From an uncultured Clostridia bacterium (GTDB lineage: Bacteria > Bacillota > Clostridia > Christensenellales > UBA1242), in assembly GCA_947591785.1 (NCBI GenBank), contig CANQDK010000002.1, positions 79,069 to 143,068 of the forward strand: DNA of 64,000 nucleotides, in the 5' to 3' direction. Positions 9,001 to 62,850 of the stretch are shown here, in pieces. The first letter of the stretch is position 1. Each line of letters starts with the position of its first letter. The notes beneath the pieces are model-generated. The model searched no databases, was not told the origin of the DNA, and saw nothing but the letters and a program-made list of their open reading frames with translations. The position numbers and the translations under genes are program-made.

Positions 9001-12000
9001 CAACTGTGACGAGTTCAAACCAAACATCACAATCACCACTTTGCAATTCTAATTCAGAGAATTTTCCAGCACCAATCAAGTTTTCATAAGATTCGCCAAA
9101 AATGTCAAATAATTTGCGTTTGACATAATTTCCGCCTCTGCCACTATCATTAACATAAGAGCTGTCGGTTTCATAAGTGTATAAAAGTTCACCCTTTTCT
9201 CCATTTGAAAGTTTGTAGATTCTCAAAACATAACCTTCCGCATTATCCACAGCCTTCCAAATGAGAGACATTTCATCATCAAGACGCTCAATTTGAACAG
9301 TTTCCGAATCAACACGTTCAATTCTTCTCATCGTGAATGAAACTTCTTTTTCAACTGAAGAAACGTAGTATTTTGTTTGTGTTGAAATCACTTCTGTTTC
9401 ATGCGTTGCCATAACCTTCAAATTGAATTGCCCATTTTCCCAGTTGTCAGGAGCATCAAAGACAAATTCTCCATCAGCATTTGCTTTGACAATATTTATT
9501 TCAGCATTGTTCTTTACAAAATACGCAACTTTATTGTCTTTCCCACCAGTGATTTTAAAGCCATTTGATGCTCGAACAATATTTTCATCGCCAACACTTG
9601 CAAGCACTTCATAAGGTTCGCTTTCCTTCATTCCAGAAGGATTTGTTTGTGGGCCACCCACAGAAGCAAGAAAATATCTTGAATTTTCCGCACTGTTATT
9701 GACAAAGGCACTGACTTTGATTATTCCACCAGAAGAGAGATTTTCATTAAACCAAGAAGCCTGATTTTCGCCTAAATCATATTCAAATTGCCCCTCACTT
9801 CCAAGTTCTTCACCAGAGAAAGGCACAAAGAACGCTTTTGTAACTTTCACACTTGACAACGCATCATTATTGAAAATGTCAACCTTTAAAATAACGCCTT
9901 TTGCAAGTTCTTGAGCATATTCCGTATTATATGAAAACTTCACAACTTTGCTGTAACCTATTTGTTCTTCTTTAAATTCAACCGCTTCCAAATCATGAGC
10001 ACGTTTTAGTGTCAAAACCAAAGCTGAAGAAGGAATAAAGGCTTGAGCATTATCTCCTTCACTTACGGCAAAAATTTCAAATATTAAATCATGTTCAACA
10101 GAGAGATAGTTTGCAATTTCACTGCTTTCCAATGTAAAACTGTAAGTTTCGATTTCTTTTGAAACACTCTCCTTACGCAAAAATTCTCTTCCTGTTGATG
10201 CAACACGATAAATTTCAAACGTTCCAGTCTGATTGTAATCTCCCTTTAAAGAAATCTTAACATTAGGATATTGTGCATTAAGCGGATTTGAATCATCATA
10301 AACATATTCCAACCCACCAATTTCTGGTATGGCAAGCTTTTGAGTTTTTGCAGATGCATTGTATATGTAATGATTACATTCACCCACACCTTCATCTTCG
10401 GTGTTCAAAAGTTTTTGTGCTTTTGCAAAATAAATATCCCCTGCAACAGCAGAATATGGTTTTAAATGTGCGGACAAACTTACTGTGATTTCTCCAGCAT
10501 TTAACACTTTCAAATCTTCAAGGAGTTTTTGAGCATTTTTATCTTCTGCATCTGTCAAGTTGACACTTGTATTTTCAGTCCTATATGTTACTATTTTGTT
10601 TAAACTATCTTTAAAGATTAAAACATATTCCAAAGATGGCAGATTCTTTTCAACTCCATAAGGATTCCAAGAAACTATGTTCCCTGCAAAATTGATTTCA
10701 TCATTTGAAGGTTTAACATCTTCTCCATTCATTTCTTTCACAGTCCAAGATGCAACCTCACTGTCAATGTAATAGGTTGTGCAGAGAAGTTTTCCTTGCT
10801 CTTCTTGTTCAGGATTTTCTCTTTGCTCAAGTTTTTTACCAAGAATAGTGAAATCGTATTTTGTTCCAGTTTCGTCAATTTCCACACTGCCTGAAAGTTT
10901 ATCTTCACTTATTGTTCTTCCAGAACTTTCAACCTTAACCGCCTTTGTATAATCCGCCTCTGGAGCGTTATACAAAAGTTGAGCAGAGTCTGTCAAAGTC
11001 ACTTTATCAAGCGATTTGAGTTTGTAAATCTTGACGTAAGATGATTCATTTGATGTTAAGAATTGTGGGTGCGAAACTTTAATATAGAATGTGAAAAATT
11101 TCTCCGCTTCCTTATATTCGCTTGTAAAATTGGTGAATGTGTTTGCAGAAACTTTACCAATCAAGGTGTCGTCACCTTTTTCATTAAGCAAATAAATCTC
11201 ATATTCAACATTTGTAAGTTGTTGACTGTTTAATGCCTCTCCGCCAACCGTGGCAGAATTCCAAGAAAGAGTGTATGTTTGTCCTTCAGCACTGAATGTT
11301 GGAACAACTTCGTCAAATTTCTTAACTTCTATTGTTGTTTCAGAACTTGCACTCTTTGCAAACAAAGAGGAAATCTGAACAAATTTTGAATCATCATTAT
11401 CTCTTTCAATGTTTTGATAAGCAAAAGCACGAAATTTGATTGAATCGGCTTGTGCAAATTCTGCACTTAAATCTTCAACTTGGTTAAGTTTGTCTATGAA
11501 ACTTTGAATGTTGATTGAAATTTTATTATCTTCACTTTCTTCAACATAATCCACTTTAGGCCCAAAATCATGAGAATATCCATCAACAGACACGCTTTGA
11601 GTGTCAAATCGAACAGTGTAGGATTTTGAATCCCCATTCACTCCCACACAAACAATATCAACAACATAATATTTTGTCGCACTTGATTGTTCATGATTGA
11701 AAACAAGTTTTCCATTATTATATTCAAAATTTGTTGGAGTTGACAAGCGTTGAAAATCAATAGTTGATTCACCGCTTTCCAAGAATGTTGTCAAAACTTC
11801 TTGCGAATCTTGATTTTCCTGTCCAATATCAAAGTAATTTCCATCTATGTTTGAACCTTTCAAATTTATATTGAGTGAGAATTTAACATAATTTCCTTCT
11901 TCGTCAATAATTTTGATAGTTGTGTCTTCACTTGTGTTTGAAAGAAGTCTACCATTTTGAGAAACAACAATTTCGCTGACACCATCTTTTTTTCTGATAG

Positions 12001-50534: not shown

Positions 50535-50973
50535 ATGCAAGAAGTTTTTGAATTTTTAGAGAACAATCCTGTGCAATATTGTGCTACAATAGGTTTGGAC
50601 GGAAAGCCAAAAGTTAGGCCTTTTCAAATGATGTATCACGAGCAAGGCAATTTGTTCTATTGCACAGGTGCAAAAAAAAGATGTGTATGCAGAGCTTACA
50701 AAAAATCCATATTTGGAAATAAGCGTTTCTACACTTGATAAATGGCTTCGCATTCGTGGAAAAGTGCATTGGGTTACAAACAACGAAACAAGAGAAAAGT
50801 GTTTGAATGCAAGCCCACTTGTAAAATCAATATACAAAACAGCGGACAATCCTATTTTGCAAGTTTTCTACATTGAGGACGCAGAAGCTGTGCTTGCCGA
50901 TTTTTCTGGCAATCCGCCAAAGAAGTTTAATCTTAATAAATGTGAGGAAAATGGAAAAACAAAAAGTAATTGA
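50535..50973 (+). pseudogene. Pyridoxamine-5'-phosphate-oxidase-like (FMN-binding split-barrel) gene disrupted by a +1 nt frameshift in an A8 run
   Basis: The track ORFs 50529-50738 and 50668-50973 are two halves of one protein: ...NLFYCTGAKK | DVYAELTKNPYLEISVS...RIRGKV. They join if the A8 run at 50672-50679 is read as A7. Confidence 0.7.
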
Positions 50974-51706
50974 CAAGCTTTTGAATATGCTTGCAAAAAA
51001 ACTTAATTTGAAAATTCAGCCGACGGGCGACTACCTACAAGATAGACGCCTGTTTCGTGGCGTTTGTAATCAGCTTCCGCCTATGGATTTGGGAGATGAT
51101 TTTTATAAATTGCAAGATGAACTTTTGAAAACTGAAAGCATAGAAAAAGGTGTTGTTGACATAAATTCTTTGAAATATAAAAACAATATTTCGCTTTTTA
51201 AGGGCGATATAACAACACTCAAAGCAGACGCCATTGTCAACGCAGCAAACGACCAATTTCTTGGTTGTTTTGTGCCATGCCATAATTGTATTGACAATGT
51301 GATTATGAGTGCAAGCGGCTTTCAAATGCGAAATGAACTTGCTCGGCTTAAAAAACAAAAAAATTATGATAACGAGTTTGTAAAAATAACAAGCGGATAC
51401 AACTTGCCATGCAAGTATGTTTTTCATGTTGCAGGGCCACAAATTTTTGGCGAAGTAACCGAAAAAGATAAGCAGGATTTGGCGAATTGTTATCTTTATT
51501 GCTTAAACAAAGCAAAAGAAATGGGATTAAAAAGTATAGTATTTTGTTGTATTTCAACAGGTGTTTACTCTTTTCCAAACGAACTTGCTTGTGAAATTGC
51601 AATTAAAACTGCTCGAGATTGGCAAAGCAAAACAAAAAGCAATCTAAAAATTGTTTTTAATGTTTTTAAGGATATTGATGAGGAACTTTATGAGCAAAGA
51701 TTATGA
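50951..51706 (+). CDS. Macro-domain protein (ADP-ribose binding / protein-ADP-ribose hydrolase type)
   Basis: Motifs ISLFKGDITTLKADAIVNAANDQFLG, VFHVAGP and CISTGVYSFP (GxY-type phosphate loop). GAGGAAA lies upstream of ATG 50951; the track start is 50873. Confidence 0.8.
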   Translation: MEKQKVIDKLLNMLAKKLNLKIQPTGDYLQDRRLFRGVCNQLPPMDLGDDFYKLQDELLKTESIEKGVVDINSLKYKNNISLFKGDITTLKADAIVNAANDQFLGCFVPCHNCIDNVIMSASGFQMRNELARLKKQKNYDNEFVKITSGYNLPCKYVFHVAGPQIFGEVTEKDKQDLANCYLYCLNKAKEMGLKSIVFCCISTGVYSFPNELACEIAIKTARDWQSKTKSNLKIVFNVFKDIDEELYEQRL

Positions 51707-52049: not shown

Positions 52050-52286
52050 ATGAACGAAACAAATAATTCAAGAAAAAGAAGGTCAACAAGGTCAAAAATA
52101 GGCAATGCTCTTTTAACTGCAGGCGTGATTATGGGTGTGGCAGGCATTGCCAAATCAATTAAAAAGTCTAATGACGAGCAGCCAACAAGTAAGGTCAAGT
52201 ATTGCAGCGAGTGCGGAGTAAAAAACGAAATCACTGCAAATTTCTGTTGGCAATGTGGACATAAATTTGTTCAAATAGACAAATAA
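52050..52286 (+). CDS. Small bitopic membrane protein with a C-terminal zinc-ribbon
   Basis: TM segment IGNALLTAGVIMGVAGIA, then KYCSECGVKNEITANFCWQCGHKF (CxxC-x10-CxxC). Confidence 0.6.
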   Translation: MNETNNSRKRRSTRSKIGNALLTAGVIMGVAGIAKSIKKSNDEQPTSKVKYCSECGVKNEITANFCWQCGHKFVQIDK

Positions 52287-52297
52287 AGGAGAAAATT

Positions 52298-52861
52298 ATG
52301 GCAGAACTTAATGGAAATTACGTTAACGAAGAAAATCATCAAAAGGTAAAAACAAAACTTCAAAAAATTGGATATGTCCTGTTGGGTGTTGGTGCTGTTT
52401 TCAGTATTGTGGGCATTGTGTTGTTGATTTTTGGTTTCACATCAATGGGCAAAATAGTTGAAAAAACCGAGCCTGGAATTCCAACAGTAGGTCAAGGATT
52501 TTCTTCAAGTATCGGCTTATTTATAGGTGGAGGAATTTTGTTAACTATCGGCATAGGTATGTTTGCTTATGGTGTCTATGCATCATTTTTTGCTCATGCA
52601 CGTGAAATAGCCGCGTATGGTGCAAGCACGGTTGCTCCAGTTATTGGAGAGACAACAAACTATCTTGCAGATGAAACATCTCCTGCAATTCAGAAAGTTA
52701 CAAGTGCTATTTCAAATGGAATAAGAGGAAAACAACCAAACGAAAAAGCTGAAACACAAAGTGAACAACAAATAAATTCTGATATAAAATATTGCACTGA
52801 GTGCGGAGCAAAAAACACTCGTGAATCAAAATTCTGCACAAAATGCGGAAACAAATTTTAA
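52298..52861 (+). CDS. Membrane protein (2-3 TM) with a C-terminal zinc-ribbon
   Basis: AAAGGAGAAAATT SD. TM segments IGYVLLGVGAVFSIVGIVLLIFGF and IGLFIGGGILLTIGIGMFAYGVYASFF. The C-terminus is KYCTECGAKNTRESKFCTKCGNKF. Confidence 0.7.
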   Translation: MAELNGNYVNEENHQKVKTKLQKIGYVLLGVGAVFSIVGIVLLIFGFTSMGKIVEKTEPGIPTVGQGFSSSIGLFIGGGILLTIGIGMFAYGVYASFFAHAREIAAYGASTVAPVIGETTNYLADETSPAIQKVTSAISNGIRGKQPNEKAETQSEQQINSDIKYCTECGAKNTRESKFCTKCGNKF

Positions 52862-53036: not shown

Positions 53037-53480
53037 TTATAAATCTCTAAAGTTCTCTCGAGCAACCATTCCAAGAATGCCAGCACCTGCTATAGAAGTT
53101 ACGCTGGCTAAAACTAAACCTGCTCCAATGCTTGCGTCTTTTATAGCGGTTTTATATAATTTTTCACAACAATCTTTATGCCCTTCTTCGACCCAAATAT
53201 TGCGGAAAACACTTAAATCTTCTGTTCCATTGATATAAGACACCCTCACATCAAACTCCGAATTCGATATTTCCCCATTATCGAATTTTTCTTGAACCTT
53301 TTGAAGTTCTTCTAAACGATAGTTGTCATACGCTTTTGCTTCGTTTAAATGTCCCCGCCATGAAAAAATGCCTCCACCTATCATAAGTCCAACCGAGCCT
53401 GCACCAATTACGGCAGCACCTAAACTGCAAATAATTCCTGCTTTCAAACAAGATTTTCTCCAACTTTTATCTGAATACAT
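53037..53480 (-). CDS. Small two-TM protein with glycine-zipper-like helices
   Basis: AAAGGAGAAAAAAT SD. TM helices GIICSLGAAVIGAGSVGLMIGGGIF and ASIGAGLVLASVTSIAGAGILGMV flank an ~80-aa soluble loop. It lies directly downstream (same strand) of the AAA+ gene. Confidence 0.6.
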   Translation of the reverse strand: MYSDKSWRKSCLKAGIICSLGAAVIGAGSVGLMIGGGIFSWRGHLNEAKAYDNYRLEELQKVQEKFDNGEISNSEFDVRVSYINGTEDLSVFRNIWVEEGHKDCCEKLYKTAIKDASIGAGLVLASVTSIAGAGILGMVARENFRDL

Positions 53481-53510: not shown

Positions 53511-53546
53511 AACAAGACTTTCTGAATTTCTTCAAAAAGTCTTGTT
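53511..53546 (-). other. Perfect 11-bp-stem hairpin between the AAA+ gene and the glycine-zipper gene
   Basis: AACAAGACTTT (53511-21) pairs with AAAGTCTTGTT (53536-46) across a 14-nt loop. On the minus strand it is followed by TTTCTTTCTG and then the SD/ATG of the 53480 gene. Confidence 0.5.
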
Positions 53547-53787: not shown

Positions 53788-55806
53788 TTATCCGTTTGCT
53801 TTTTTCCATTCTAGAATTTTTTCAATGTCCTCTTTTTGAACAGAAGGAGTGGTTTGAGAAAGTGCCTCAACAAAGTCATCGTTACAAATAAATTTTTCAT
53901 TTGTTTTTAAACCTCGTATAGCAGAAATTTCCTCAACTTTGTCAAGAAGGGAAGAAATATCTGCACCATTGAAGCCTTCTGTATTTTTGACAACATTTTC
54001 AATGTCAAAATCTCTTATCTCAACAACTTTTTTCTCTTTCAATTTTTCCATTCGTCTGTTTATCATGTATTGTCTCGCAGGAGCATCTGGCAATCCTATA
54101 TAAATTCTTGTTCCAAAACGCCCTGGCCTTAGAAATGCACTATCCACATCCCATGGTTTGTTTGTTGACGCAATGAGAAATAATATATTCTTATTTTCTT
54201 TGCCGTAATCTTCAATGCCTTGCAATTGTGACAACAACTCTGATCTCAATTGTTTTGCATATTGTGCCCTGGTCGATTTTGAGGAAATTGAATCCATCTC
54301 ATCAAAATATATAACTGCACACGGAAATTGTCGTGCCTGCAAGAACAATGATTTTACTGCTTTTTCAGTGTTTCCAATTCCTGTATTTAAAAGGTCGGAA
54401 GGTTTAATTGAACAAAACTTTGCACCAATTTCATTTGCTATCGCAGCTGCTATCATGGTTTTTCCTGTTCCAGGAGGTCCATACAGCAAAAGCCCGCCTC
54501 CGCTTTTTCGAACATACCCTTCAAAAGCATCAGGGCGTTGAAGAGGCAATAAAACTTTCACTTTGACAACTTCTTTCACATTTTCTAGTCCTGCGATGTC
54601 ATCAAAATTTATTGCTGGAAGGTTGTCCCAGTCAAATTTATATTCATTTTTTTCTTCTTCTTTTTCAAAAGAAAACTTCTCTTCAATTTTTTCATTTTTG
54701 TCTATTTTTTCATCATTAGACATGTTCACTTCAAGCGGAATATCTTCCATTGTTATCGTTTGTAATTGGCTGTCACTTGGCTCATCCATTTGAGCAATTC
54801 GCTTAGACTGTTTTGTAACAACATTTTCAAAAAAGTTTCTCACATCTCTTCCATTACCAAAATTTTTACCTCTGTTTTGATAAAGAGAATAAAAATATTT
54901 CTGTAAGAAATGCTTTACATCTTCTTCAATAACATACTGACTCTTTTGACAAAATTTGACGAAAATGTTGTATAATTCTTTTCCGTCATAGTCATCGAAA
55001 TGAATAAAGTTTTTGAAACGAGATTTAAGGCCAGGATTTGAATTTATAAATTTTTCCATAGGTCCGTCATAACCAGCCACGATTACCACAAGGTCATCAC
55101 GCTTATCTTCCATTTCCTTTAATATGGTTTCAATAGACTCCTGTCCAAAGTCGTTTGAGCCACCACCCACAAGCGAATAAGCTTCATCAATAAACAGAAC
55201 TCCGCCTAGAGCCTTTTTGATAACTTCTCTTGTCTTTTCAGCGGTCTGCCCAACATAACCAGCAACAAGTCCGCCTCTGTCAACTTCAACTAAACTCCCC
55301 TCACTCAAGATTCCAAGTGCACAATAAATTTGAGCCATCAGACGAGCAACAGTTGTTTTTCCTGTTCCAGGATTTCCAGTGAACACAAGATGATATGACA
55401 TATCAGGAACGGACAAGCCTCTTTCCTTTCGCTTTTGAAAAACTTTTATTTGGTCAACCCAGTCGCGAACCTTCGCTTTAACCTTTCCCAAGCCCTCAAG
55501 ATTTTCAAGACGACTTAATGCTTCTTCAAGGGAGATTTTTTCATTTTTCTGAGCTTCAACTTCTTTATTTACAGATTTTTCTTTCTTAGGTAAATCAATG
55601 CTTTCCGCCATTTCAATTAAACTTTTTGCTCTGCTAAACCTTGCTTTTTGAAGTTGATTATCGCTTGCCTTTGCCATTTTTAACATCTGTTCAGCAGCAA
55701 GAAAATAATATCGCTTTGCAAGAAGCATATCTTTTTTTTCGTGACACTCCTTTGCTTTGCGATAATAAAGTTCAAATGTTTCATTTAACAAACTTATGTC
55801 AGGCAT
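53788..55806 (-). CDS. MIT-domain protein with two AAA+ modules (SpoVK/CbbX-type followed by Vps4/katanin-type)
   Basis: aa 1-75, ELYYRKAKECHEKKDMLLAKRYYFLAAEQMLKMAKASD...RAKSLIEMAESI, follow the MIT three-helix pattern. AAA-1 has HLVFTGNPGTGKTTVARL...VLFIDEAY...VIVAGY. AAA-2 has LLLYGPPGTGKTMIAAAIA...VIYFDEMDS...ASTNKPWDVDSAFLRPGRF. The C-terminus ...TPSVQKEDIEKILEWKK resembles meiotic-clade AAA proteins. Confidence 0.85.
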   Translation of the reverse strand: MPDISLLNETFELYYRKAKECHEKKDMLLAKRYYFLAAEQMLKMAKASDNQLQKARFSRAKSLIEMAESIDLPKKEKSVNKEVEAQKNEKISLEEALSRLENLEGLGKVKAKVRDWVDQIKVFQKRKERGLSVPDMSYHLVFTGNPGTGKTTVARLMAQIYCALGILSEGSLVEVDRGGLVAGYVGQTAEKTREVIKKALGGVLFIDEAYSLVGGGSNDFGQESIETILKEMEDKRDDLVVIVAGYDGPMEKFINSNPGLKSRFKNFIHFDDYDGKELYNIFVKFCQKSQYVIEEDVKHFLQKYFYSLYQNRGKNFGNGRDVRNFFENVVTKQSKRIAQMDEPSDSQLQTITMEDIPLEVNMSNDEKIDKNEKIEEKFSFEKEEEKNEYKFDWDNLPAINFDDIAGLENVKEVVKVKVLLPLQRPDAFEGYVRKSGGGLLLYGPPGTGKTMIAAAIANEIGAKFCSIKPSDLLNTGIGNTEKAVKSLFLQARQFPCAVIYFDEMDSISSKSTRAQYAKQLRSELLSQLQGIEDYGKENKNILFLIASTNKPWDVDSAFLRPGRFGTRIYIGLPDAPARQYMINRRMEKLKEKKVVEIRDFDIENVVKNTEGFNGADISSLLDKVEEISAIRGLKTNEKFICNDDFVEALSQTTPSVQKEDIEKILEWKKANG

Positions 55807-55816
55807 ATTTCCCCTT

Positions 55817-56377
55817 TTAAGACATCTTTTTCTTTAACTGTTCAAGTTCCTTTTCAATCTCACTGTCAACCGCACCATCCATGCTTGCTTCATTGTTGAG
55901 AACAGCTTCAAGTTCTTTATGTTCTTCTTCACTAGTCATTGTGCGAGAAGAGAAAGTCGATTGAGTTTCTTCCAAAAATTCTTCCATCTGCTCGGCTTGA
56001 ACTTCGACACCCATCATTGCCTCATTAAACTGCTTCTCAACCTTCTTAAAGTCGGATTCTTTTGTAAGTTTCATCATATCCTTGCTTAAAACACTCATGC
56101 CTGCAAGAAAGTCAGAAGTCATTTTTGTCATATCTTTCATTTGAGAGGTGATTTCAAAATTTAACTTCATTTCATAAACACTTCTCTGCTGAGAAATTGT
56201 CATTTTTAAACCAGCTAAGGCAAGATTGTATTGAGCAGTAAGGCCTTTTTGTTTTGCCTCCTTTCCAGCATCAATATAGCCTTGCTTTTGTTTTTCAAGC
56301 TTCTGGATTTGTTTCTCCATTTCGTTTATTGTGCGTTTTATAAGCATACGCTTTTCAATTTCTTTTTTAGACGACAT
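55817..56377 (-). CDS. ESCRT-III/Snf7-like (PspA/Vipp1 superfamily) coiled-coil protein with a C-terminal MIM1-like motif
   Basis: 186 aa, all-helical heptad pattern. INEMEKQIQKLEKQKQGYIDAGKEAKQKG + LTAQYNLALAGLKMTISQQRSVYEMKLNFE reads as an alpha1/alpha2 hairpin. MTSDFLAGMSVLSKDMMKL...FKKVEKQFNEAMMGVEVQAEQMEEFLEE matches the Snf7 alpha3-alpha5 pattern. An acidic linker follows, then the terminal DSEIEKELEQLKKK. Confidence 0.6.
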   Translation of the reverse strand: MSSKKEIEKRMLIKRTINEMEKQIQKLEKQKQGYIDAGKEAKQKGLTAQYNLALAGLKMTISQQRSVYEMKLNFEITSQMKDMTKMTSDFLAGMSVLSKDMMKLTKESDFKKVEKQFNEAMMGVEVQAEQMEEFLEETQSTFSSRTMTSEEEHKELEAVLNNEASMDGAVDSEIEKELEQLKKKMS

Positions 56378-56388
56378 AAATTTCTCCT

Positions 56389-56985
56389 TTATTTATTTTC
56401 ATCACTACTCGTTTTGGTTTCGGCGGAAGTTGAAAACATTTCTTGTTCATTGTCAATTTGCTCTTCTGTTTCAAACATGGCAAGAAGTGCATCATCTTGG
56501 TCGCTCATTCCGTATATGCTTTCATTCTTGTCATAAGACTCTTCAACCTCTTTAAAAACTTCGTCAGCAGATGTCAAAATATCTTCGCTCTTTGTCTTTG
56601 TTCCAAGTGCTTTATTCAAAAACTTTGCAAGCCCTTTTTGGTCTGCAAGAAGTTTGTTAAGCGGAATTTTTGTTGTGTTTTTAAAAAATTGATTGTCATC
56701 TATTGCGGTTTTAAGTTTGTTTAAAAGTTGAGTGTTATACATGAGATACATTGCTCGCTGAACACTTTGTTCTCTTTCAAGTTTAAGTGAGTTGATTTTT
56801 TTTGCATAAAAAAGTTTGACATCTTTCTCTTTTTCAGCCTTTCCCTTTGCCATTAACTGATTGATTTGTTCTTGTTTTGCACTCAAACCTTCTTCAATTT
56901 CTTTTTCTTCTTGTTCAAGTTTGCAAATGGCGTCAACCACTTCTTCGCGTGACATTTTGTCATATTTATTTTTAAAAAACCACAT
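56389..56985 (-). CDS. Second ESCRT-III/Snf7-like coiled-coil protein
   Basis: 198 aa. It has an aromatic N-terminus (MWFFKNK). LEQEEKEIEEGLSAKQEQINQLMAKGKAEKEKDVKLFYAKKINSLKLEREQSVQRAMYLMYNTQLLNKLKTAI fits the Snf7 hairpin pattern (K..A...lk.kk..e.q). The C-terminal tail is acidic. Confidence 0.5.
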   Translation of the reverse strand: MWFFKNKYDKMSREEVVDAICKLEQEEKEIEEGLSAKQEQINQLMAKGKAEKEKDVKLFYAKKINSLKLEREQSVQRAMYLMYNTQLLNKLKTAIDDNQFFKNTTKIPLNKLLADQKGLAKFLNKALGTKTKSEDILTSADEVFKEVEESYDKNESIYGMSDQDDALLAMFETEEQIDNEQEMFSTSAETKTSSDENK

Positions 56986-56998
56986 ATTTTACTACCCC

Positions 56999-57325
56999 TT
57001 AAAGTTTTGCGTTTCTGTCAGCGATATTAAGACGAATATCTGCAAGAGCATTTTCAACTTTTTTGCTGGTTTCACCATCTGATTTGACAAGGGCAATTCT
57101 CATATCCTCAATATGTCTTTTGATTTTGACATCAAAATCATAAATCTTATCATCAGGAGAAGGAACAAGATATTTAATTTTTTCCTTTAATTCTTTAAGT
57201 TTTTCAACCAAATTTTCATCTTTTTCGGCAAGAATTAAAAGAGCATCAATAGCCTTTTCGTTTTGACTTATAAGTTCTCTGTCTTTTGTATTGTTTTGTG
57301 AATTTTTCTTTTTAAATAAGCCCAT
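56999..57325 (-). CDS. Small helical protein with a CHMP-like MGLFKKK N-terminus
   Basis: 108 aa with a TAGGAGG SD. It is predicted all-helical and its family is unassigned. Confidence 0.5.
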   Translation of the reverse strand: MGLFKKKNSQNNTKDRELISQNEKAIDALLILAEKDENLVEKLKELKEKIKYLVPSPDDKIYDFDVKIKRHIEDMRIALVKSDGETSKKVENALADIRLNIADRNAKL

Positions 57326-57335
57326 TTTAAACCTC

Positions 57336-58355
57336 CTATTTTAACTTTGTTCCGCAAGACGAACAGAACACTGCATCTTTATCATTTAACTTTCCGCATT
57401 TTGGACAAAGATTTGTGTCTTTTCCAACTTTCTTTCCACATTTTGCACAGAATTTGTCATTGCCACTGATTTCCGCTCCGCAGTTTGAACAGAACGAACC
57501 TGTTTTGTTATCTTTTGGATGGCCAATGATTTTCAAAACTTCATAATATGCATTTTTGTCTGCCAATTCAAGTTGGCGGAGATATTTTTCTCTTTCCCAT
57601 TGTTTGTCATCAAGTCTTTCAAGTTCGGCAAGATACTCTTTGACTTTCTCGTTTTTCTTCACTTCGGCAGCAGCTTCTTCGACAGCATTGCTATCTTCGT
57701 CACTTATGCCCAAATATTCAATGACAAAATTGCTAAGTCCAATTCCCCAACTGTTTTCAAAAATTTTGCTGAGGAGTTTTCCAGTGTTCTCTTGGATTTT
57801 TTTCTTGTTTGCATCAAATTTGTCATACGTCAACTTTAACTCATCAACAACTTTCAAGAAATTGTCAGTAAATTCACTTAAAACATTTGCACTAAATCTT
57901 TCTTGGAATTCATCAAGGCTGAACTCTTTTTTGACACCAACAACTTTTCTGAAAAATTGTTCAGGATTAACGATTACAACATCAAAGACACCATGTGCAG
58001 CAACACTGATAACTTTGTTGCTTGCCTCATCTCTATATTTGATTTTTTCCTTTGTCCCCCACTTTATAGGAACATTTGGGTCTTTTGGCATATAGATTAT
58101 GTCTACAGATGAGCCGATTTTCCAATTTTTAACTTCTGTCTTGTCGTCAAAAACAGGATAAGTTCCACTCTTATAAACTCTTCCATCTCCGCCACCTTTG
58201 ATGACATAGGCGATATGTGTAAGTGGAACTTCAAACATAGCCTTTTTGTTTTTAACCTGGTCGGTTACTCTCACAAACAAAATCTTATTGTCGTCAACAC
58301 TAGCTTTGCAAAGATTTTGTTCAAACTTAATCACTTGTGTTTCTTTTTTTAACAT
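57336..58355 (-). CDS. SPFH/Band-7-like protein with C-terminal tandem zinc-ribbons (COG4260/YdjI-type architecture)
   Basis: AAGGAGAG SD before ATG 58355; the track start is 58403. A beta-rich N-terminal ~230 aa is followed by the coiled-coil KVKEYLAELERLDDKQWEREKYLRQLELADK. The C-terminus is FCSNCGAEISGNDKFCAKCGKKV...LCPKCGKLNDKDAVFCSSCGTKL. Confidence 0.65.
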   Translation of the reverse strand: MLKKETQVIKFEQNLCKASVDDNKILFVRVTDQVKNKKAMFEVPLTHIAYVIKGGGDGRVYKSGTYPVFDDKTEVKNWKIGSSVDIIYMPKDPNVPIKWGTKEKIKYRDEASNKVISVAAHGVFDVVIVNPEQFFRKVVGVKKEFSLDEFQERFSANVLSEFTDNFLKVVDELKLTYDKFDANKKKIQENTGKLLSKIFENSWGIGLSNFVIEYLGISDEDSNAVEEAAAEVKKNEKVKEYLAELERLDDKQWEREKYLRQLELADKNAYYEVLKIIGHPKDNKTGSFCSNCGAEISGNDKFCAKCGKKVGKDTNLCPKCGKLNDKDAVFCSSCGTKLK

Positions 58356-58471
58356 AACTCTCTCCTTAAAAAATTTTTCTTTAGAAAAATAATATTCTGT
58401 CAATTCATTATATCACTAAACGATGTGGAAAAGTCAAGTGTTTTACATTCTGTAAACCTTTACATGCAAAA

Positions 58472-59221
58472 TTAGAACATAGGTATAGTCTTTCTCACAC
58501 TTGACAAAAATTGGATTATGATATCGCAAGGCACTGCAAAATTCATGCCTTCTGCACCAGTGACACCCGAAACTATTGCACCAATCACTTTTCCTTTTTC
58601 GTTGAACATAGGGCCACCCGAATTTCCACCATTTATTGCACAGTCTGTCATTAAAAGTCGTTTTCCTTTGACAATTCTTGACTTATCGCTGACAATTCCA
58701 CTTGTGATGCAAGTTCCAGCACCCAACGAATTCCCAACAACATAAACTTGTTCGCCGATACGAACTTTTTCAAAGTCTTCAAATTCAAGTGCAACAGCCC
58801 CTCTTGGTAGATATTGCAATTTGATAAGTGCCAAATCGACACCACTGCCATCTCCGTGTCTATCGTCACCCAATGCAACAACCACTGCAGGAACTTTTGT
58901 GTTGTTTATCTTCACCCAAACTTGTTCACAAGACTTGCCATCTGCAAATGTGACGACATGAGTATTTGTGATTGCATATCCCTGTTTGTTGATGAGAAAG
59001 CCCGAGCCTGAGTTTAGAATGTTTCCATTTTGCCAAGTGATTTCAAGAATGCCGCCAATGTTTTTTTCAAACACACTTGCACCACCGCTTATAGATTTTT
59101 CTTTCACGTGAACTGACTCTGTCATCACGTCATCTTCTGAAAAAACCGAACCGCAATACAAACATTTATATTTCCCGTTTTCTTGTTTTTTACATTCACC
59201 TTGACAGAATTTGCAATTCAT
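58472..59221 (-). CDS. Zinc-ribbon-fused trypsin-like (S1/HtrA-type) serine protease, no signal peptide
   Basis: N-terminal CKFCQGEC-x10-CLYCGSVF. The catalytic triad context is AITNTHVV (His), VDLALIKL (Asp) and NGGNSGGPMFN (Ser). AAGGAGG SD. Confidence 0.8.
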   Translation of the reverse strand: MNCKFCQGECKKQENGKYKCLYCGSVFSEDDVMTESVHVKEKSISGGASVFEKNIGGILEITWQNGNILNSGSGFLINKQGYAITNTHVVTFADGKSCEQVWVKINNTKVPAVVVALGDDRHGDGSGVDLALIKLQYLPRGAVALEFEDFEKVRIGEQVYVVGNSLGAGTCITSGIVSDKSRIVKGKRLLMTDCAINGGNSGGPMFNEKGKVIGAIVSGVTGAEGMNFAVPCDIIIQFLSSVRKTIPMF

Positions 59222-59275: not shown

Positions 59276-62200
59276 TTATACATCTTTTTTCCACGTCTCA
59301 GTCCTATAATCGGATTTAAGTAATTGTGCCATTTTAGTAGGATTTTTCAACTCATAATAAATTCCTTTTGAACCAGCATGCCAACCAGTTGACGTATCTT
59401 TAAATACTACTTCATTTAGATTTTTGAGACTTGAAAATGCATAACTGTTTATGGTGGTAAGTCCTGTAGAAATTGTCACCTTTGTAACCCTTTCCATCAT
59501 TTCACCTGGAATCCAGCCACCGTCTATTGTTATTACCACCTTTCCATTAAGTTCTTCTGGAATTTCAATTTCAACATCACCATCATCTCTGATATAACAA
59601 GTTCTAACTTCCCCCGATGTAATTCTCAAAAGGTAGCCCTCCCCCACAAACACTTGGCTTTGATAGAGAGGAATCATTCCCAAGCATACAGAAATCAAAA
59701 CTGGTGCTATGAATGGCAAGAAAAGCATTATTTTGTCTACTGTGACGCTATATGGCTCTCTATAATATGCCACCATACAGTAAATAGTCACTAATAATAA
59801 TATGCTGAACAAAATTAGCATTGGAATTAATATGTAATCATCACCCATAAATCCGACAGCATAGACAAGCCAGAAATCAAATTTTCCACAAAGCGTTAAA
59901 ATCAACGTAACAACTATGCCAGCACCCAAAATAAACGATGCAGGAAGAAGAATATAGCGTTGTGGCCTTGTTTCGTCCCACCCTTCGCGGCCAAAAAAAT
60001 ATACAAAAGCTTTCCAAAGCATTATTAAAGGAAAACCAATTATCATAAAGAATTTTTTGATTAAAGATGCATTAAGAAATTGCATTCTATATGTGCGATC
60101 TAGTTTGTTGTCGTATCTATGTGTCTCTATTAATTCTCTTTTCTTTTTAAAATTGTCTGAATAATAATCATTTTCACTTTCTTGCAATTCTTTTAAACAT
60201 TTTTCTATATCGTTGTGATTAAAAATGTTTGCAAGTGCTATAAGATTGTCAAATACATCAGTTTTCATTCTTGGAAGACGAGAACCATGATAAGTTTGAT
60301 TTAAAGCCAATTTTAATTCCCCTGTTGCACTCTTCAGCCCCTTACATATATTTGATGGAGTGGAAGTTTTCAAATTTAACCCATAATTGTTGTTAAATCT
60401 TTTAACTAAATCTTTTAAATAATTTTCACTAAAGGTTTCGTAGGCTTTTTTGTAAATCGGTAGCATGTCGTTTTTGTGAAGTTTTGAATCAAATCCAAAA
60501 CTTATGGTTGGAACCATATATTTGTTTACTTTTGCACAATCAGCCACAGCTTTATTTAATTCAAGATAATAGTTTTCAGCATTTGGAAACTTTTCTGTGT
60601 AGGTGTTTATTGCTGAAAGATAATCTTCATCGTCTAAAAGTTCATCAGAATACTTCATTAAATCTGCATCTTGAACAACTTTATGTCTAACCAAAAATCT
60701 GTTAAAATAAGCATTATGGTCAAACGGGTCAATTGAGAGGACAAGATTGATATATTCAGCGATTTTATCAAAATCCTTTTTTAAATAGTCTATATTTTCT
60801 GCCCCTTGCACTTCGCCCATTTTTTCAATTCGATAGTTCACTCTGTTTGAAAAGTCTTCAAAGTCATAGAGATAATCCAAAAACGAGTTTACCGTATTTT
60901 TAAACATTTCGTTTTCTTGCTTTGGTATCATGCTGAGCAAAAAGTCAAATATGCTGCAAGCACTATCAATATCTCTTTTGCCAGATTCATCTCTTTTATT
61001 GATTGTTATTTCTGTCAGTTTTTTAACCGCATAATTGTTATAGCCATAGGCAAAAACTTGTTCTTCAATCGTCTTTTGATTTTCGATATTACTGCAATAT
61101 TCGTAAATCAAATCATCGTTTAACAAATTATTCTCTACTAAGAAAGTTTCATAAAGAGCCTCTTGATTTGATGGATCAATGCTTAAAATGTTGTCATAAT
61201 ATGTTTTTCGGTTTTCGGCAGGAAGAATATGTAAAAACTCTGTGTTCATCTTTAAATAAAGGTCGGTATCCTTAATCGTTCTGATAATACTATTGAACAC
61301 TGTTTCATCTTTTGATTCCAATGCGGATTTAAACATAACACTTGTTAAGGTTGCAATTGATTCATCATCTGAATCAGGCAAAGCAATATATTCTTCATAA
61401 TCGGAAAGATTTTTATGTTTTTTAACTCTTTCCTCAAGCAAATCATACAACGAGTTGTCATCTTTATGGCGTGTTGCGATAGCCTTTTCAAAGACACTAT
61501 AATCGTCTATCTTTGGACATTCCACAAACTTCTCTTTGTCTGAAAATTTGTTTTCAGCAAGGAATGAAATAAAATACGCGTCACTAAGACTAGGATTTAT
61601 GCCCAAAATGCTATTGCAGAAAGACTGAGCATGAACATAGTCACCATTTTTCAAAAGATCTTCCGCATTTTTAAGCATTGTAAGTTCTGAAATTGTGGCT
61701 TTTTTACCCTTTAAATCTCCCAAATCCCTCTTTTTGATGGCTTGTTTATTTAATTGCTTTTTCTTTACTTGAATTTCGGCATAATCTTTTCTTTGAATTG
61801 TTGGAATATTTGAAGAAGAAAATTTATCTACAAAATCCAACACCTGTTGAAGTGCCTTATAGTTGTTAAAATCAATACCTTGAATTTTTCCCTTAACATT
61901 TGGCAATTTTTCAACAGGTTTACCTTTAAAAACAAAGGTTATACTCCCATCTTCCTTTTCACCCTCGGAAAGCATGTGATTATATCTTGAATATTCATTT
62001 CGAACCCAAGGAGTCTGCAAATATGCTTCATTTGTGCAAACAATAATCATGCTTTTTGCACAATAAAGAGCATAGAGAATCATTGCCTCATAGTCCGAAC
62101 CAACTTTGCCACTCATTTCCTCTTCCGAGTAGAAAGGTTTATAGTCAAGTTTTCTCAGTTCGTGATAAAGTTTTGAAGCGATTGTGCTGTCCTCTGTGTG

Positions 62201-62734
62201 ATTTCCCTCTTCAGTGGTAACTTTCACGCAGATAAAGGTGTCGTAGTCAAGTCCAGAATTTTTAAGTTCAAAAAACTTGTTTCTTATGTAGTCTATCTCT
62301 TCCGCCTTTGCCTTATAAATGGCTCTCTGCTCTGGCGAAGCAAGTTCCATCGCTTTGAGATAGTTTTTGTCTTCTACAAATTTATTACTGCTGACATCAT
62401 AACAAATAGGTTGAAAGCGATATTTCACTCCATCTTCCCCATTTGTGACATCTTTAAGATACTGAACCTTTGCTGTTGCAAGAGCCATTCCAAAGTAACC
62501 CTCAGGCCCATCTGGTTCAAGTTCTGTTGCCTTTTGGAACATTATGTAGGCATCATCAAAGTGAAAGGTTTCAAGATTTTGTTCACCTTCCACTAATTTA
62601 GACCTTGTTGAAGAAAATGACTTAGGTAAAATCATTTTGCTTCTGCAATATGGACATGTCAACACGCCATTCACAGAGGTTGTTATATCAAGTTTGCCTT
62701 CACAGTTTTTACATCTCAATTCATTAACATTCAT
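59276..62734 (-). CDS. Zn-ribbon / TPR-like / TIR-domain protein with a long helical region, 4-5 TM helices and a C-terminal BspA-type LRR-like segment
   Basis: N-terminal CKNCEGK-x15-CPYCRSK. The TIR-like block is DYDTFICVKV...EDSTIASKLYHELRKLDYKPFYSEEEMSGKVGSDYEAMILYALYCAKSMIIVCTNEAYLQTPWVRNEY. The TM cluster includes FFMIIGFPLIMLWKAFVYFF...IMLFLPFIAPVLISVCLGMIPLY. The C-terminus is VTKVTISTGLTTINSYAFSSLKNLNEVVF. GAGAGG lies 6 nt upstream of ATG 62734. Confidence 0.7.
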   Translation of the reverse strand: MNVNELRCKNCEGKLDITTSVNGVLTCPYCRSKMILPKSFSSTRSKLVEGEQNLETFHFDDAYIMFQKATELEPDGPEGYFGMALATAKVQYLKDVTNGEDGVKYRFQPICYDVSSNKFVEDKNYLKAMELASPEQRAIYKAKAEEIDYIRNKFFELKNSGLDYDTFICVKVTTEEGNHTEDSTIASKLYHELRKLDYKPFYSEEEMSGKVGSDYEAMILYALYCAKSMIIVCTNEAYLQTPWVRNEYSRYNHMLSEGEKEDGSITFVFKGKPVEKLPNVKGKIQGIDFNNYKALQQVLDFVDKFSSSNIPTIQRKDYAEIQVKKKQLNKQAIKKRDLGDLKGKKATISELTMLKNAEDLLKNGDYVHAQSFCNSILGINPSLSDAYFISFLAENKFSDKEKFVECPKIDDYSVFEKAIATRHKDDNSLYDLLEERVKKHKNLSDYEEYIALPDSDDESIATLTSVMFKSALESKDETVFNSIIRTIKDTDLYLKMNTEFLHILPAENRKTYYDNILSIDPSNQEALYETFLVENNLLNDDLIYEYCSNIENQKTIEEQVFAYGYNNYAVKKLTEITINKRDESGKRDIDSACSIFDFLLSMIPKQENEMFKNTVNSFLDYLYDFEDFSNRVNYRIEKMGEVQGAENIDYLKKDFDKIAEYINLVLSIDPFDHNAYFNRFLVRHKVVQDADLMKYSDELLDDEDYLSAINTYTEKFPNAENYYLELNKAVADCAKVNKYMVPTISFGFDSKLHKNDMLPIYKKAYETFSENYLKDLVKRFNNNYGLNLKTSTPSNICKGLKSATGELKLALNQTYHGSRLPRMKTDVFDNLIALANIFNHNDIEKCLKELQESENDYYSDNFKKKRELIETHRYDNKLDRTYRMQFLNASLIKKFFMIIGFPLIMLWKAFVYFFGREGWDETRPQRYILLPASFILGAGIVVTLILTLCGKFDFWLVYAVGFMGDDYILIPMLILFSILLLVTIYCMVAYYREPYSVTVDKIMLFLPFIAPVLISVCLGMIPLYQSQVFVGEGYLLRITSGEVRTCYIRDDGDVEIEIPEELNGKVVITIDGGWIPGEMMERVTKVTISTGLTTINSYAFSSLKNLNEVVFKDTSTGWHAGSKGIYYELKNPTKMAQLLKSDYRTETWKKDV

Positions 62735-62820
62735 CACAGACCTCTCATAAAATTAAAAAAACAACTTCAACATGACGGCTCAGTTTTGCTAAATAAACTA
62801 TGCATCAATAATACATATTA

Positions 62821-62850
62821 ATTCTACCATTTAAGTGTAAACTATGTCAA
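62821..62850 (-). promoter_or_regulatory. Near-consensus extended -10 promoter of the seven-gene TIR/ESCRT-III-like operon
   Basis: The minus strand reads TTGACA (62850-45), an 18-nt spacer, then TGgTAGAAT (TAGAAT at 62826-21), ~80 nt upstream of the start codon. Confidence 0.55.

Follow-up and report, generated by a model that had tools for sequence, protein, structure and literature searches.

Two adjacent genes on the minus strand of the 64,000-nucleotide stretch analysed here (the window; contig CANQDK010000002.1, positions 79,069 to 143,068, from an uncultured Clostridia bacterium) encode a 186-amino-acid (aa) protein of the Snf7 family, called E3 in what follows, and a 672-aa AAA+ ATPase. 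All the relevant genes lie on this strand, with five more upstream of E3 in the same direction. The original prediction, made from the letters of the DNA, read the two products as a pair of the ESCRT-III/Vps4 type (ESCRT standing for the endosomal sorting complexes that are required for transport), in which an MIT domain at the start of the ATPase meets an MIT-interacting motif of type 1 (MIM1) at the end of E3. The peptides it quoted, the lengths and the 10-nucleotide (nt) spacing all agree with the sequence. The pair has the following features:

55817..56377, minus strand: E3, 186-aa ESCRT-III (Snf7-family) protein; open reading frame (ORF) ending in DSEIEKELEQLKKKMS and a TAA stop
55820..55867, minus strand: C-terminal MIM-like helix, E3 residues 171-186, DSEIEKELEQLKKKMS; hydrophobic I174, L178, L181 and M185, charged E177 and K182-K184
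55886..55915, minus strand: second conserved C-terminal motif, E3 residues 155-164, ELEAVLNNEA; family consensus sDxEIDxLIxxE (alignments A1 and A4)
55807..55816, minus strand: 10-nt spacer between E3 and the ATPase, AAGGGGAAAT on the coding strand, holding a Shine-Dalgarno-like AAGGGG before the ATPase ATG
53788..55806, minus strand: 672-aa AAA+ ATPase made up of an MIT-like head, a linker, D1, D2 and a C-terminal helix; ORF beginning MPDISLLNETFELYYRKAKECHEKKDMLLAKRYYFLAAEQMLKMAKASDNQLQKARFSRAKSLIEMAESI
55597..55806, minus strand: MIT-like three-helix bundle, ATPase residues 1-70, from AlphaFold2 (AF2), Foldseek and profile comparisons
54739..55509, minus strand: D1, AAA+ domain of the SpoVK/EccA/CbbX type, about residues 100-356; Walker motifs GNPGTGKT (A) and LFIDEAY (B), pore loop GYVGQT
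53932..54609, minus strand: D2, AAA domain of the classical type, about residues 400-625; Walker motifs GPPGTGKT (A) and IYFDEMDS (B), pore loop 1 NTGIGNTEK
53797..53898, minus strand: C-terminal helix, residues 637-670, Pfam Vps4_C (PF09336), a marginal match (24.6-26.9 bits, cut-off 21.3)

E3, the MIT-like head and the C-terminal tail

By itself, E3 reaches 14.3 bits (E 0.033) against Pfam Snf7 (PF03357), for which the gathering score is 27.3. Its family, collected by a profile search of 1.84 billion cluster representatives at E<=1e-3, amounts to 386 protein clusters at 50% identity. Of 68 diverse members, 21 match Snf7, the best at E 9.6e-7, and it is the only Pfam family to recur among the 68; PspA_IM30 does not. 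The sole significant PDB match of the family profile (A4) is CHMP2A (7zcg_B; E 5.6e-4, 133 positions). The AF2 model of E3 (helices 2-44, 47-102, 108-141 and 152-185; mean predicted local distance difference test score, pLDDT, 81) consists of a long hairpin, a third long helix, a low-confidence or disordered linker (142-151) and a C-terminal helix; it has the Snf7-type helical hairpin (alpha1-alpha2), the shorter helices and the flexible C-terminal region. CHMP1B, CHMP2A/CHMP3, CdvB, Asgard ESCRT-IIIB and Vipp1 are the top Foldseek matches (E 0.1-1), with the large root-mean-square deviations (rmsd) expected when open and closed conformations are compared. The N-terminus is basic, MSSKKEIEKRMLIKR in E3 and MGLFKSK in distant members, where it resembles the N-termini of eukaryotic CHMP proteins. 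Judged by profile and predicted fold, E3 is a genuine ESCRT-III homologue, as had been proposed. The second conserved motif (residues 155-164), which is kept in distant members and in fusions of the family to RuvB-like or FtsK-like ATPases, is possibly an equivalent of alpha5.

The ATPase starts with a predicted three-helix bundle (helices 4-23, 27-47 and 50-69; pLDDT >=94 over residues 11-70), and its N-terminal 70 residues are near-invariant in 120 homologues. Of the 50 best PDB matches found by Foldseek (E 0.07-1), over half are MIT domains, among them those of S. solfataricus Vps4/CdvC (2w2u, 2v6y), VPS4A (1yxr), 4a5x, MITD1, spartin, katanin, calpain-7 and chitin synthase. The model superposes on the VPS4A MIT domain (1yxr) with an rmsd of 1.3 A over 66 columns, and on that of MITD1 with 1.3 A too; other weak matches are to TPR/Sel1-like and designed helical proteins. 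At the level of profiles, a close-homologue profile of the head (A3) has no MIT match. For the orthologous N-termini of loci L060 and L058, the best match is to Pfam MIT (19.9 and 19.2 bits, E 8e-4 and 1.3e-3, under the gathering cut-off of 30), and the broader head profile A6 matches the chitin synthase MIT domain (2mpk) over its full length (E 0.0095) and that of VPS4A at E 0.3-0.5.

Aligned directly with the VPS4A MIT domain by hhalign (E 3.8e-4, probability 36%, a single 2-residue gap), the head pairs E39, I64, E65, A67 and E68 with VPS4A E37, L64, D65, A67 and E68. Within the family, an acidic residue (E/D) occupies column 68 in 70 of 77 sequences and E occupies column 39 in 69 of them; column 67 is A, S or T and column 64 is hydrophobic. 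The head therefore contains equivalents of the residues of the helix-2/helix-3 (H2/H3) groove that bind MIM1, namely Vps4 L64, A67, E68 and a helix-2 acidic residue. In Vps4, the L64D substitution abolishes MIM1 binding (PMC11218997), and the MIM1 arginine forms a salt bridge to the E68 equivalent, with the terminal K/R bridging to the helix-2 acidic residue (PMC5141497). The confident model, the predominance of MIT domains in Foldseek, the Pfam matches of L060 and L058, profile A6 and the alignment to VPS4A together support an MIT-like three-helix bundle at the ATPase N-terminus, and with it this half of the original prediction.

At the other end of the putative contact, the E3 tail IEKELEELKKKM is almost invariant and the linker before it is variable. 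In 120 homologues (67-79% identity) the last 12 residues, I-[DE]-K-E-[LM]-E-x-L-[KR]-K-[KR]-[MI], are near-invariant, and the preceding 15-20 residues vary freely; across unique locus pairs, I174 is kept in 74, E177 in 71, K183 in 72 and K/R184 in 72 of 77. A tail so constant beside a linker so variable bears the signature of a short linear binding motif. As in MIM1 proteins, the motif is helical, lies at the extreme C-terminus beyond a flexible linker, and is conserved among homologues, the last being a point on which the original prediction had staked itself.

Taken alone, the resemblance to MIM1 is modest evidence, because a relaxed pattern, [DE]xx[LIVM]xxx[LIVM]xx[LIVM][KR], occurs 7 times in the 17,686 residues of the window ORFs and falls within the last 20 residues of composition-shuffled E3 copies in 0.4% of 20,000 shuffles; conservation and covariation lift the match above chance. 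In the register first proposed, the tail fits five of the six positions of the consensus (D/E)xxLxxRLxxL(K/R); the sixth, where Arg is expected, holds Glu in 71 of the 77 unique sequences. In a shifted register (L181 at position 4, K184 at 7, M185 at 8) the LxxRL core fits, and the protein ends before positions 11-12. In certain distant members, L084 (DDEIDRRLSQLE) being one, the tail is a near-full fit to the classical consensus in the register first proposed. The tail profile A7 gives weak matches (E 0.07-0.5) at the very C-terminal ends of Vipp1 and of Heimdallarchaeota ESCRT-IIIB, the likeness of E3 to Vipp1 C-termini being limited to the last 12-16 residues (E 0.07-0.2).

Do the head and the tail change together? 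Each E3 tail was paired with the head encoded at the same locus, giving 78 unique pairs, and 67 x 16 = 1,072 column pairs were scanned for charge swaps. Five column pairs only show both charge orientations at least three times, and the sole one among them without a like-charged case joins MIT column 61 (K61) to tail column 177 (E177). Here, 68 pairs combine a basic MIT residue with an acidic tail residue and 5 an acidic MIT residue with a basic tail residue, none is like-charged, and the other five are uncharged at one position at least. The reversed pairs are those of L084, L086, L088, L089 and L090, with E, E, E, D and E in the MIT column and R, K, K, R and R in the tail; L092 (MIT K, tail E) fits too, by eye. 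The tails of L084, L086 and L090 were mis-registered by hmmalign and were set by eye first, then recovered by a hydrophobic-pattern rule. The MIT head and the tail appear to co-evolve at one charged contact.

This contact bears on the register. K61 lies one heptad before E68 on helix 3, and E177 one heptad before K184 in the tail; with such matching spacing, a parallel helix would set K184 (and K183) against E65/E68, and E177 against K61. The register first proposed would, given the hhalign placement, face E177 with acidic residues. It is probably one heptad off, the core LxxRL being L181-K-K-K184-M185, and once the register is shifted the anomaly of a Glu at the Arg position vanishes. The bacterial helix would thereby extend by another heptad in the direction of the H2/H3 loop, much as in the "type 4" variant (PMC9477494). 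The assignment remains tentative because the tails of L084 and certain other distant members agree with the classical consensus without any shift. An alignment of SRAKSL with Vps4 DRAEKL, which would make K61 the equivalent of E68, was rejected, since hhalign and the near-gapless Foldseek superposition make IEMAESI the equivalent of LDRAEKL. The 61/177 covariation is unaffected by that alignment and is read as a contact one heptad upstream.

Motors and variants of the pair

Pfam recognises AAA twice, AAA_lid_6, AAA_lid_3 and Vps4_C in the ATPase. D1, with intact Walker A and B motifs, matches CbbX (3syl) at E 3e-55 and scores 295 bits with SpoVK, 268 with EccA and 242 with CbbX in NCBIfam. D2 scores 195.6 bits with CdvC (cut-off 650) and 192.9 with CDC48, PAN being about equal. 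The best PDB relatives of D2 are VAT and the D2 of p97/Cdc48, and no Vps4 is found among the top 60. The aromatic pore loop 1 motif of Vps4 is KW[MV]GES; pore loop 1 of D2 is non-aromatic (NTGIGNTEK), in contrast to the KWVG[DE]SEK of single-AAA relatives. Moreover, Vps4 and CdvC consist of MIT, linker, a single AAA domain and a C-terminal helix, whereas the window ATPase has two AAA cassettes. On these comparisons it is not a Vps4 orthologue, since D2 is about equally near to CdvC and CDC48, its solved relatives are VAT and p97, and its pore loop is non-aromatic. The original view of the two genes as an ESCRT-III/Vps4-type pair, and not just generic coiled coils, is supported in so far as the pair is conserved and its parts covary, and fails if taken to mean Vps4 in the strict sense.

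Conservation of the pair was followed in the best 80 of 161 tblastn-confirmed stretches from a species-representative genome collection, and in distant E3/ATPase pairs taken from metagenome contigs that encode distant E3 members. Almost all of the 80 loci belong to uncultured Clostridia or Christensenellales of animal guts. The order SPFH, p108, p198, E3, (TIR), ATPase, (protease), (TIR) is almost universal among them (p108 and p198 being two helical proteins listed below with the other neighbours), the genes that flank the module differ between genomes, and an MIT-like head is present on every ATPase with enough sequence. Behind the head the body varies: tandem D1 and D2 (~700 aa), D1 only (~400 aa) or D2 only (~380 aa). 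In distant loci, RuvB-like ATPases too stand behind MIT-like heads (by eye in L091; by a weak hidden Markov model match in L093, E 0.0015). A head that stays constant while the motor varies is what would be expected of an adaptor domain for E3. The D2-only relatives (for example L052, L086, L089 and L090) have the Vps4/CdvC architecture at the same operon position and the Vps4-like pore loop given above; they align with positions 16-366 of the 370 of NCBIfam CdvC at 186-208 bits (cut-off 650), and score 205-221 bits with CDC48.

Distant E3 members (31-42% identity) are directly followed by an ATPase with an MIT-like head, in surroundings that include TIR-FHA, PP2C and kinase genes (L089) or proteasome-like, TIR and Macro genes (L090). 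Some loci have several E3 paralogues, each upstream of ATPases with MIT-like-looking N-termini. E3 also occurs in natural fusions: the ESCRT-III-like domain comes first, retains both of its C-terminal motifs, and leads through a linker into a P-loop ATPase. This is RuvB-like in P0285, P0292, P0316, P0321, P0339, P0352, P0355, P0356 and P0369, some of which have C-terminal NERD-like regions, and FtsK/SpoIIIE-like in P0290, P0293, P0301, P0302, P0304, P0315, P0317, P0318, P0322 and P0327. Given these fusions, the ESCRT-III-like module pairs with at least three unrelated motor classes. One fusion locus, L092, also encodes a separate MIT-AAA protein.

Individual loci depart from the common plan in other ways. 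Among close relatives, ATPase ORFs of 372-440 aa end after D1 in L010, L014, L021 and L004, through natural truncation or an assembly frameshift; the next gene encodes a TIR protein in L010, L014 and L021, and a trypsin-like protease in L004. L088 (2637..9332) has an SPFH/E3/MIT-ATPase block right after a phage-type integrase, followed by a BrxL-like gene (BrxL_N and BrxL_ATPase) and a TPR-TIR gene, a setting typical of mobile defence islands. The large loci L091 (1..11000) and L093 (1188..11919) each contain an SPFH gene, three or four E3-like paralogues, separate D1-type and D2-type AAA genes whose N-termini each look MIT-like by eye, and one RuvB-like ATPase of 724-836 aa; L093 encodes a SNF2-like helicase as well.

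Recruitment, rival explanations and known systems

Real MIT-MIM-type recruitment of the ATPase by E3 seems reasonably probable from these comparisons. The E3 core would probably form a membrane-associated polymer, from which the last 12-16 residues would project as an amphipathic helix on a variable acidic linker. Most likely, this helix would dock in the helix-2/helix-3 groove of the MIT-like bundle, parallel to helix 3, as in type-1 MIT-MIM complexes. The groove would be occupied by I174, L178, L181 and M185, with K184 (helped by K183) pairing with E65/E68 and E177 pairing with K61, a heptad closer to the loop. Docking would recruit the hexameric ATPase to the polymer, whose subunits would then be extracted or remodelled by pore-loop translocation. 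In the tandem enzyme, D1 (GYVGQT) is the probable translocating ring, because D2 lacks an aromatic pore loop. The reading of the two as a recruitment pair, one an ESCRT-III subunit and the other an MIT-headed ATPase, is supported in substance; the ATPase would work like Vps4 while falling outside the Vps4 family by score and architecture. A role at the membrane is suggested by the recurrent SPFH partner, and one in stress or immunity by the mobile, variable content of TIR, protease, kinase and Macro genes.

Several observations weigh against this recruitment model. The tail departs from the strict MIM1 consensus in the register first proposed, and the shifted register leaves the motif cut off after position 8. 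Foldseek E values are weak for all structural matches, which is common with small helical domains; Pfam MIT (PF04212) has no match to window residues 1-105 even at E<=10, and the MIT matches of L060 and L058 are sub-threshold. No more than one or a few evolutionary events may lie behind the charge swap; the five reversed pairs belong to distant lineages, three of them with a tail register that was initially fixed by eye. Finally, a similar C-terminal motif is present in Vipp1, which is without an MIT partner, and the tail motifs are kept in the E3 fusions to RuvB-like and FtsK-like ATPases with no MIT in between; for these two reasons the motif may have other or additional roles.

It is conceivable, if unlikely, that the C-terminal helices belong to the polymer itself (alpha5/alpha6 packing or auto-inhibition) or bind the SPFH protein or p198, with the head recognising something else. 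The MIT-less fusions and the Vipp1-like tail profile fit such a role, as does the single continuous helix that AF2 predicts, with moderate confidence only, for E3 residues 152-185. Yet the unique, clean charge swap at 61/177 is hard to explain without a contact, fusion loci can encode a separate MIT-AAA protein, as L092 does, and the RuvB-like partners in L091 (by eye) and L093 (by its weak match) carry MIT-like N-termini of their own. Alternatively, the pair could be real and the clients of the ATPase mainly other operon products such as the TIR protein, an SPFH cage or protease substrates, E3 serving as scaffold or adaptor in a stress or anti-phage system. This is quite improbable. D1 is indeed of the SpoVK/EccA/CbbX remodeller type and D2 has no aromatic pore loop; genes of the TIR, trypsin-like protease, BrxL-like, kinase/phosphatase/FHA and Macro kinds appear repeatedly near the module, an integrase adjoins one locus, and the flanking genes vary between genomes. 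However, PADLOC finds no known defence system, E3 and the MIT-ATPase are the only genes that are always adjacent, with TIR and protease genes moving or missing, and the single-AAA relatives have a Vps4-type pore loop.

The two genes could also be neighbours for unrelated reasons, one encoding a generic TPR-like bundle and the other a generic K/E-rich coiled-coil end. The insignificant MIT-fold E values, the silence of Pfam MIT on the window protein, the other weak matches of the head (TPR/Sel1-like and designed helical proteins) and the looseness of the MIM1 consensus would suit a coincidence of this kind. Nevertheless, it is very hard to credit, as MIT domains dominate the Foldseek results, profiles match two bona fide MIT domains over their full length, adjacency is kept across ~30-100% identity and different ATPase classes, and the head and tail covary.

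How far could recruitment by an MIT-MIM contact be taken? It is a tentative and rather doubtful further step to see in gut Clostridia (Christensenellales and relatives) a complete, undescribed bacterial ESCRT-like machine, with a Snf7-type polymer, possibly p198, an SPFH/zinc-ribbon scaffold, MIT-MIM-recruited ATPases and coupling to TIR, protease or other effectors, driving ATP-dependent membrane remodelling for envelope repair or anti-phage immunity. If true, the recruitment logic of ESCRT-III and Vps4 would reach beyond archaea and eukaryotes, and the bacterial machine would have been inherited from a common ancestor, transferred, or independently assembled from a Cdc48-like AAA domain. The interchangeable motors (SpoVK/CbbX-type, Cdc48/CdvC-type and RuvB-like) behind a constant head would be a natural experiment on the evolution of MIT-MIM recruitment, and the company of SPFH, TIR, protease, kinase and Macro genes suggests a possible immune or stress function for a bacterial ESCRT-III. 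The system is small and operon-encoded and could lend itself to reconstitution, and the charge-swapped K61-E177 contact is a ready prediction for mutagenesis.

Like the eukaryotic A-type subunits Vps2/CHMP2, Did2/CHMP1 and IST1, which recruit Vps4 through type-1 MIT-MIM1 binding, E3 belongs to the Snf7 family, CHMP2A being its best solved relative. Common to both are an amphipathic C-terminal helix after a flexible acidic linker and an N-terminal three-helix MIT or MIT-like bundle with L64, D65, A67 and E68 or their equivalents; the "RL" of eukaryotic MIM1 may be likened to K184-M185 of E3 (basic, then hydrophobic). The differences are the bacterial host, the tandem AAA domains with D2 nearest to that of Cdc48/VAT, the imperfect MIM1, and a helix that appears one heptad longer towards the H2/H3 loop, with E177-K61 as an additional pair; no gene for ESCRT-0/I/II or Vta1 came to light here.

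With archaeal CdvB/CdvC, the locus shares an ESCRT-III gene directly upstream of an MIT-AAA gene, and its single-AAA relatives are collinear with the CdvC model, at scores far from the cut-off (186-208 bits against 650). CdvB, however, has a proline-rich MIM2 (PMC5840170), in contrast to the helical, MIM1-like tail of E3; the part of the original prediction that extended MIT-MIM1 recruitment from eukaryotes to archaea does not stand for CdvB. Unlike in archaeal ESCRT loci, no winged-helix (ESCRT-II-like), CdvA or adaptin-appendage genes were detected here, and TIR and trypsin-like protease genes are found instead. The archaeal Meth_adaptin loci encode a protein with SPFH, coiled-coil and zinc-ribbon parts (Makarova et al., 2024; PMC10936438), and share with the window an SPFH protein with zinc ribbons in the same locus as the ESCRT-III gene.

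The PspA/Vipp1 systems of bacteria, among them B. subtilis pspA-ydjGHI, whose SPFH protein is YdjI, have in common with the window the Band_7_1 SPFH and zinc-ribbon modules and, in Vipp1, a like tail end. They differ in that the E3 family matches Snf7 and not PspA_IM30, and in the dedicated MIT-ATPase next to E3, PspA/Vipp1 systems having been reported without a Vps4-like ATPase (PMC7619361). According to a 2025 review, a Vps4-like ATPase appears to be absent in bacteria, and recent reviews place ESCRT-III/Vps4 pairs in archaea and eukaryotes only. Bacterial ATPases with MIT and Vps4-like domains (e.g., ACB74714.1) have been described, in which snf7 is "displaced" by a TPR-6TM protein, together with a Clostridium PspA beside a two-AAA+ protein (AEY64320/AEY64321), and ATP-dependent remodelling was proposed (Ravi et al., 2024; PMC11237479). 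That the window system is the same as either of these was considered and rejected, because the arrangements differ. In the PspA system the ATPase comes before PspA, its N-terminal AAA domain is inactive and an MIT is not among the domains listed; the window has a Snf7-type gene ahead of an MIT-headed ATPase, and D1 keeps its Walker A and B motifs. Neither a MIM-like tail nor covariation between MIT and tail is described in that work (Ravi et al., 2024; PMC11237479). No bacterial Snf7/Vps4-type pair is described in the literature searched, beyond which an earlier publication is possible.

Neighbouring genes of the apparent operon

Upstream of E3 lie the five further genes mentioned above, with candidate signals at both ends:

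56389..56985, minus strand: p198, 198-aa helical protein, directly upstream of E3 and present in nearly all loci
56999..57325, minus strand: p108, 108-aa helical protein starting MGLFKKK, its position kept across loci
57336..58403, minus strand: SPFH (Band_7_1) protein with two C-terminal zinc ribbons (Pfam Band_7_1 E 1.1e-15, Zn_Ribbon_1, DZR)
58472..59221, minus strand: zinc-ribbon and trypsin-like (HtrA/DegP-type) serine protease (Trypsin_2 E 1.3e-27; NCBIfam DegP/HtrA subfamily)
59276..62737, minus strand: 1153-aa TIR protein (TIR_2 E 4.6e-9)
62821..62850, minus strand: best sigma-70-like promoter match, upstream of the TIR gene, TTGACA-18-TAGAAT with TG, 11/12; consensus match only
53511..53546, minus strand: terminator-like hairpin downstream of the ATPase gene, 16-bp stem then T run; consensus match only

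E3, the ATPase, p198, p108, SPFH, protease and TIR genes form one apparent seven-gene operon (53.5-62.9 kb in the window), a layout that fits the promoter-like match preceding the TIR gene and the terminator-like hairpin following the ATPase gene.

Of the two small conserved proteins encoded in every case between the SPFH gene and E3, both with N-termini of the MGLF/MWPF type seen in ESCRT-III proteins, p198 is collinear with the E3 family over 146 columns in hhalign, a weak match (E 0.0098, probability 4%) with no Pfam or PDB support. It ends in a conserved DDxLLAMFE motif and might be a divergent, B-type-like second ESCRT-III subunit. p108 has no family match in Pfam or hhalign, and the homologue search on the question of paralogy found close relatives only.

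The SPFH gene, called elsewhere as 339 aa (a start at 58355 in window coordinates), is the first of the conserved block in the 80 loci and is present in the distant L088, L089 and L091-L093. The protease gene is recurrent and variable in position, and TIR genes, likewise variable in position, occur in most loci and in the distant L088, L089 and L090. The 1153-aa TIR protein of the window starts with a zinc ribbon and ends in a BspA-type LRR tail; between them lie TPR, TIR_2, a long stretch of helix and several hydrophobic segments. It keeps the W..xE motif (WVRNEY, read from the translation). In a search of the operon proteins against PADLOC-DB v2, no known defence system was recognised; the matches were limited to generic similarities of the AAA (IetA, TRIP13) and protease (RT-Protease, LmuA) kinds, and E3, p198, p108, SPFH and the TIR protein were without a match.

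Elsewhere in the window, a 3842-aa ORF (3026..14554, minus strand) has no Pfam match at E<=1e-4. About 2 kb beyond the ATPase gene, a Macro-domain protein is encoded at 50873..51706 on the plus strand (Pfam Macro, E 6.5e-30), and in L090 a Macro gene adjoins the TIR gene. The substrates of Macro domains are derivatives of ADP-ribose, and TIR NADases make products of this kind; the link between the two may be coincidental. Just downstream of the operon lie three genes for small membrane-type proteins (52050..52286 and 52298..52861, plus strand; 53037..53480, minus strand), two of which carry C-terminal zinc ribbons like those of the SPFH, protease and TIR proteins, and zinc ribbons are unusually common in the neighbourhood of the operon.

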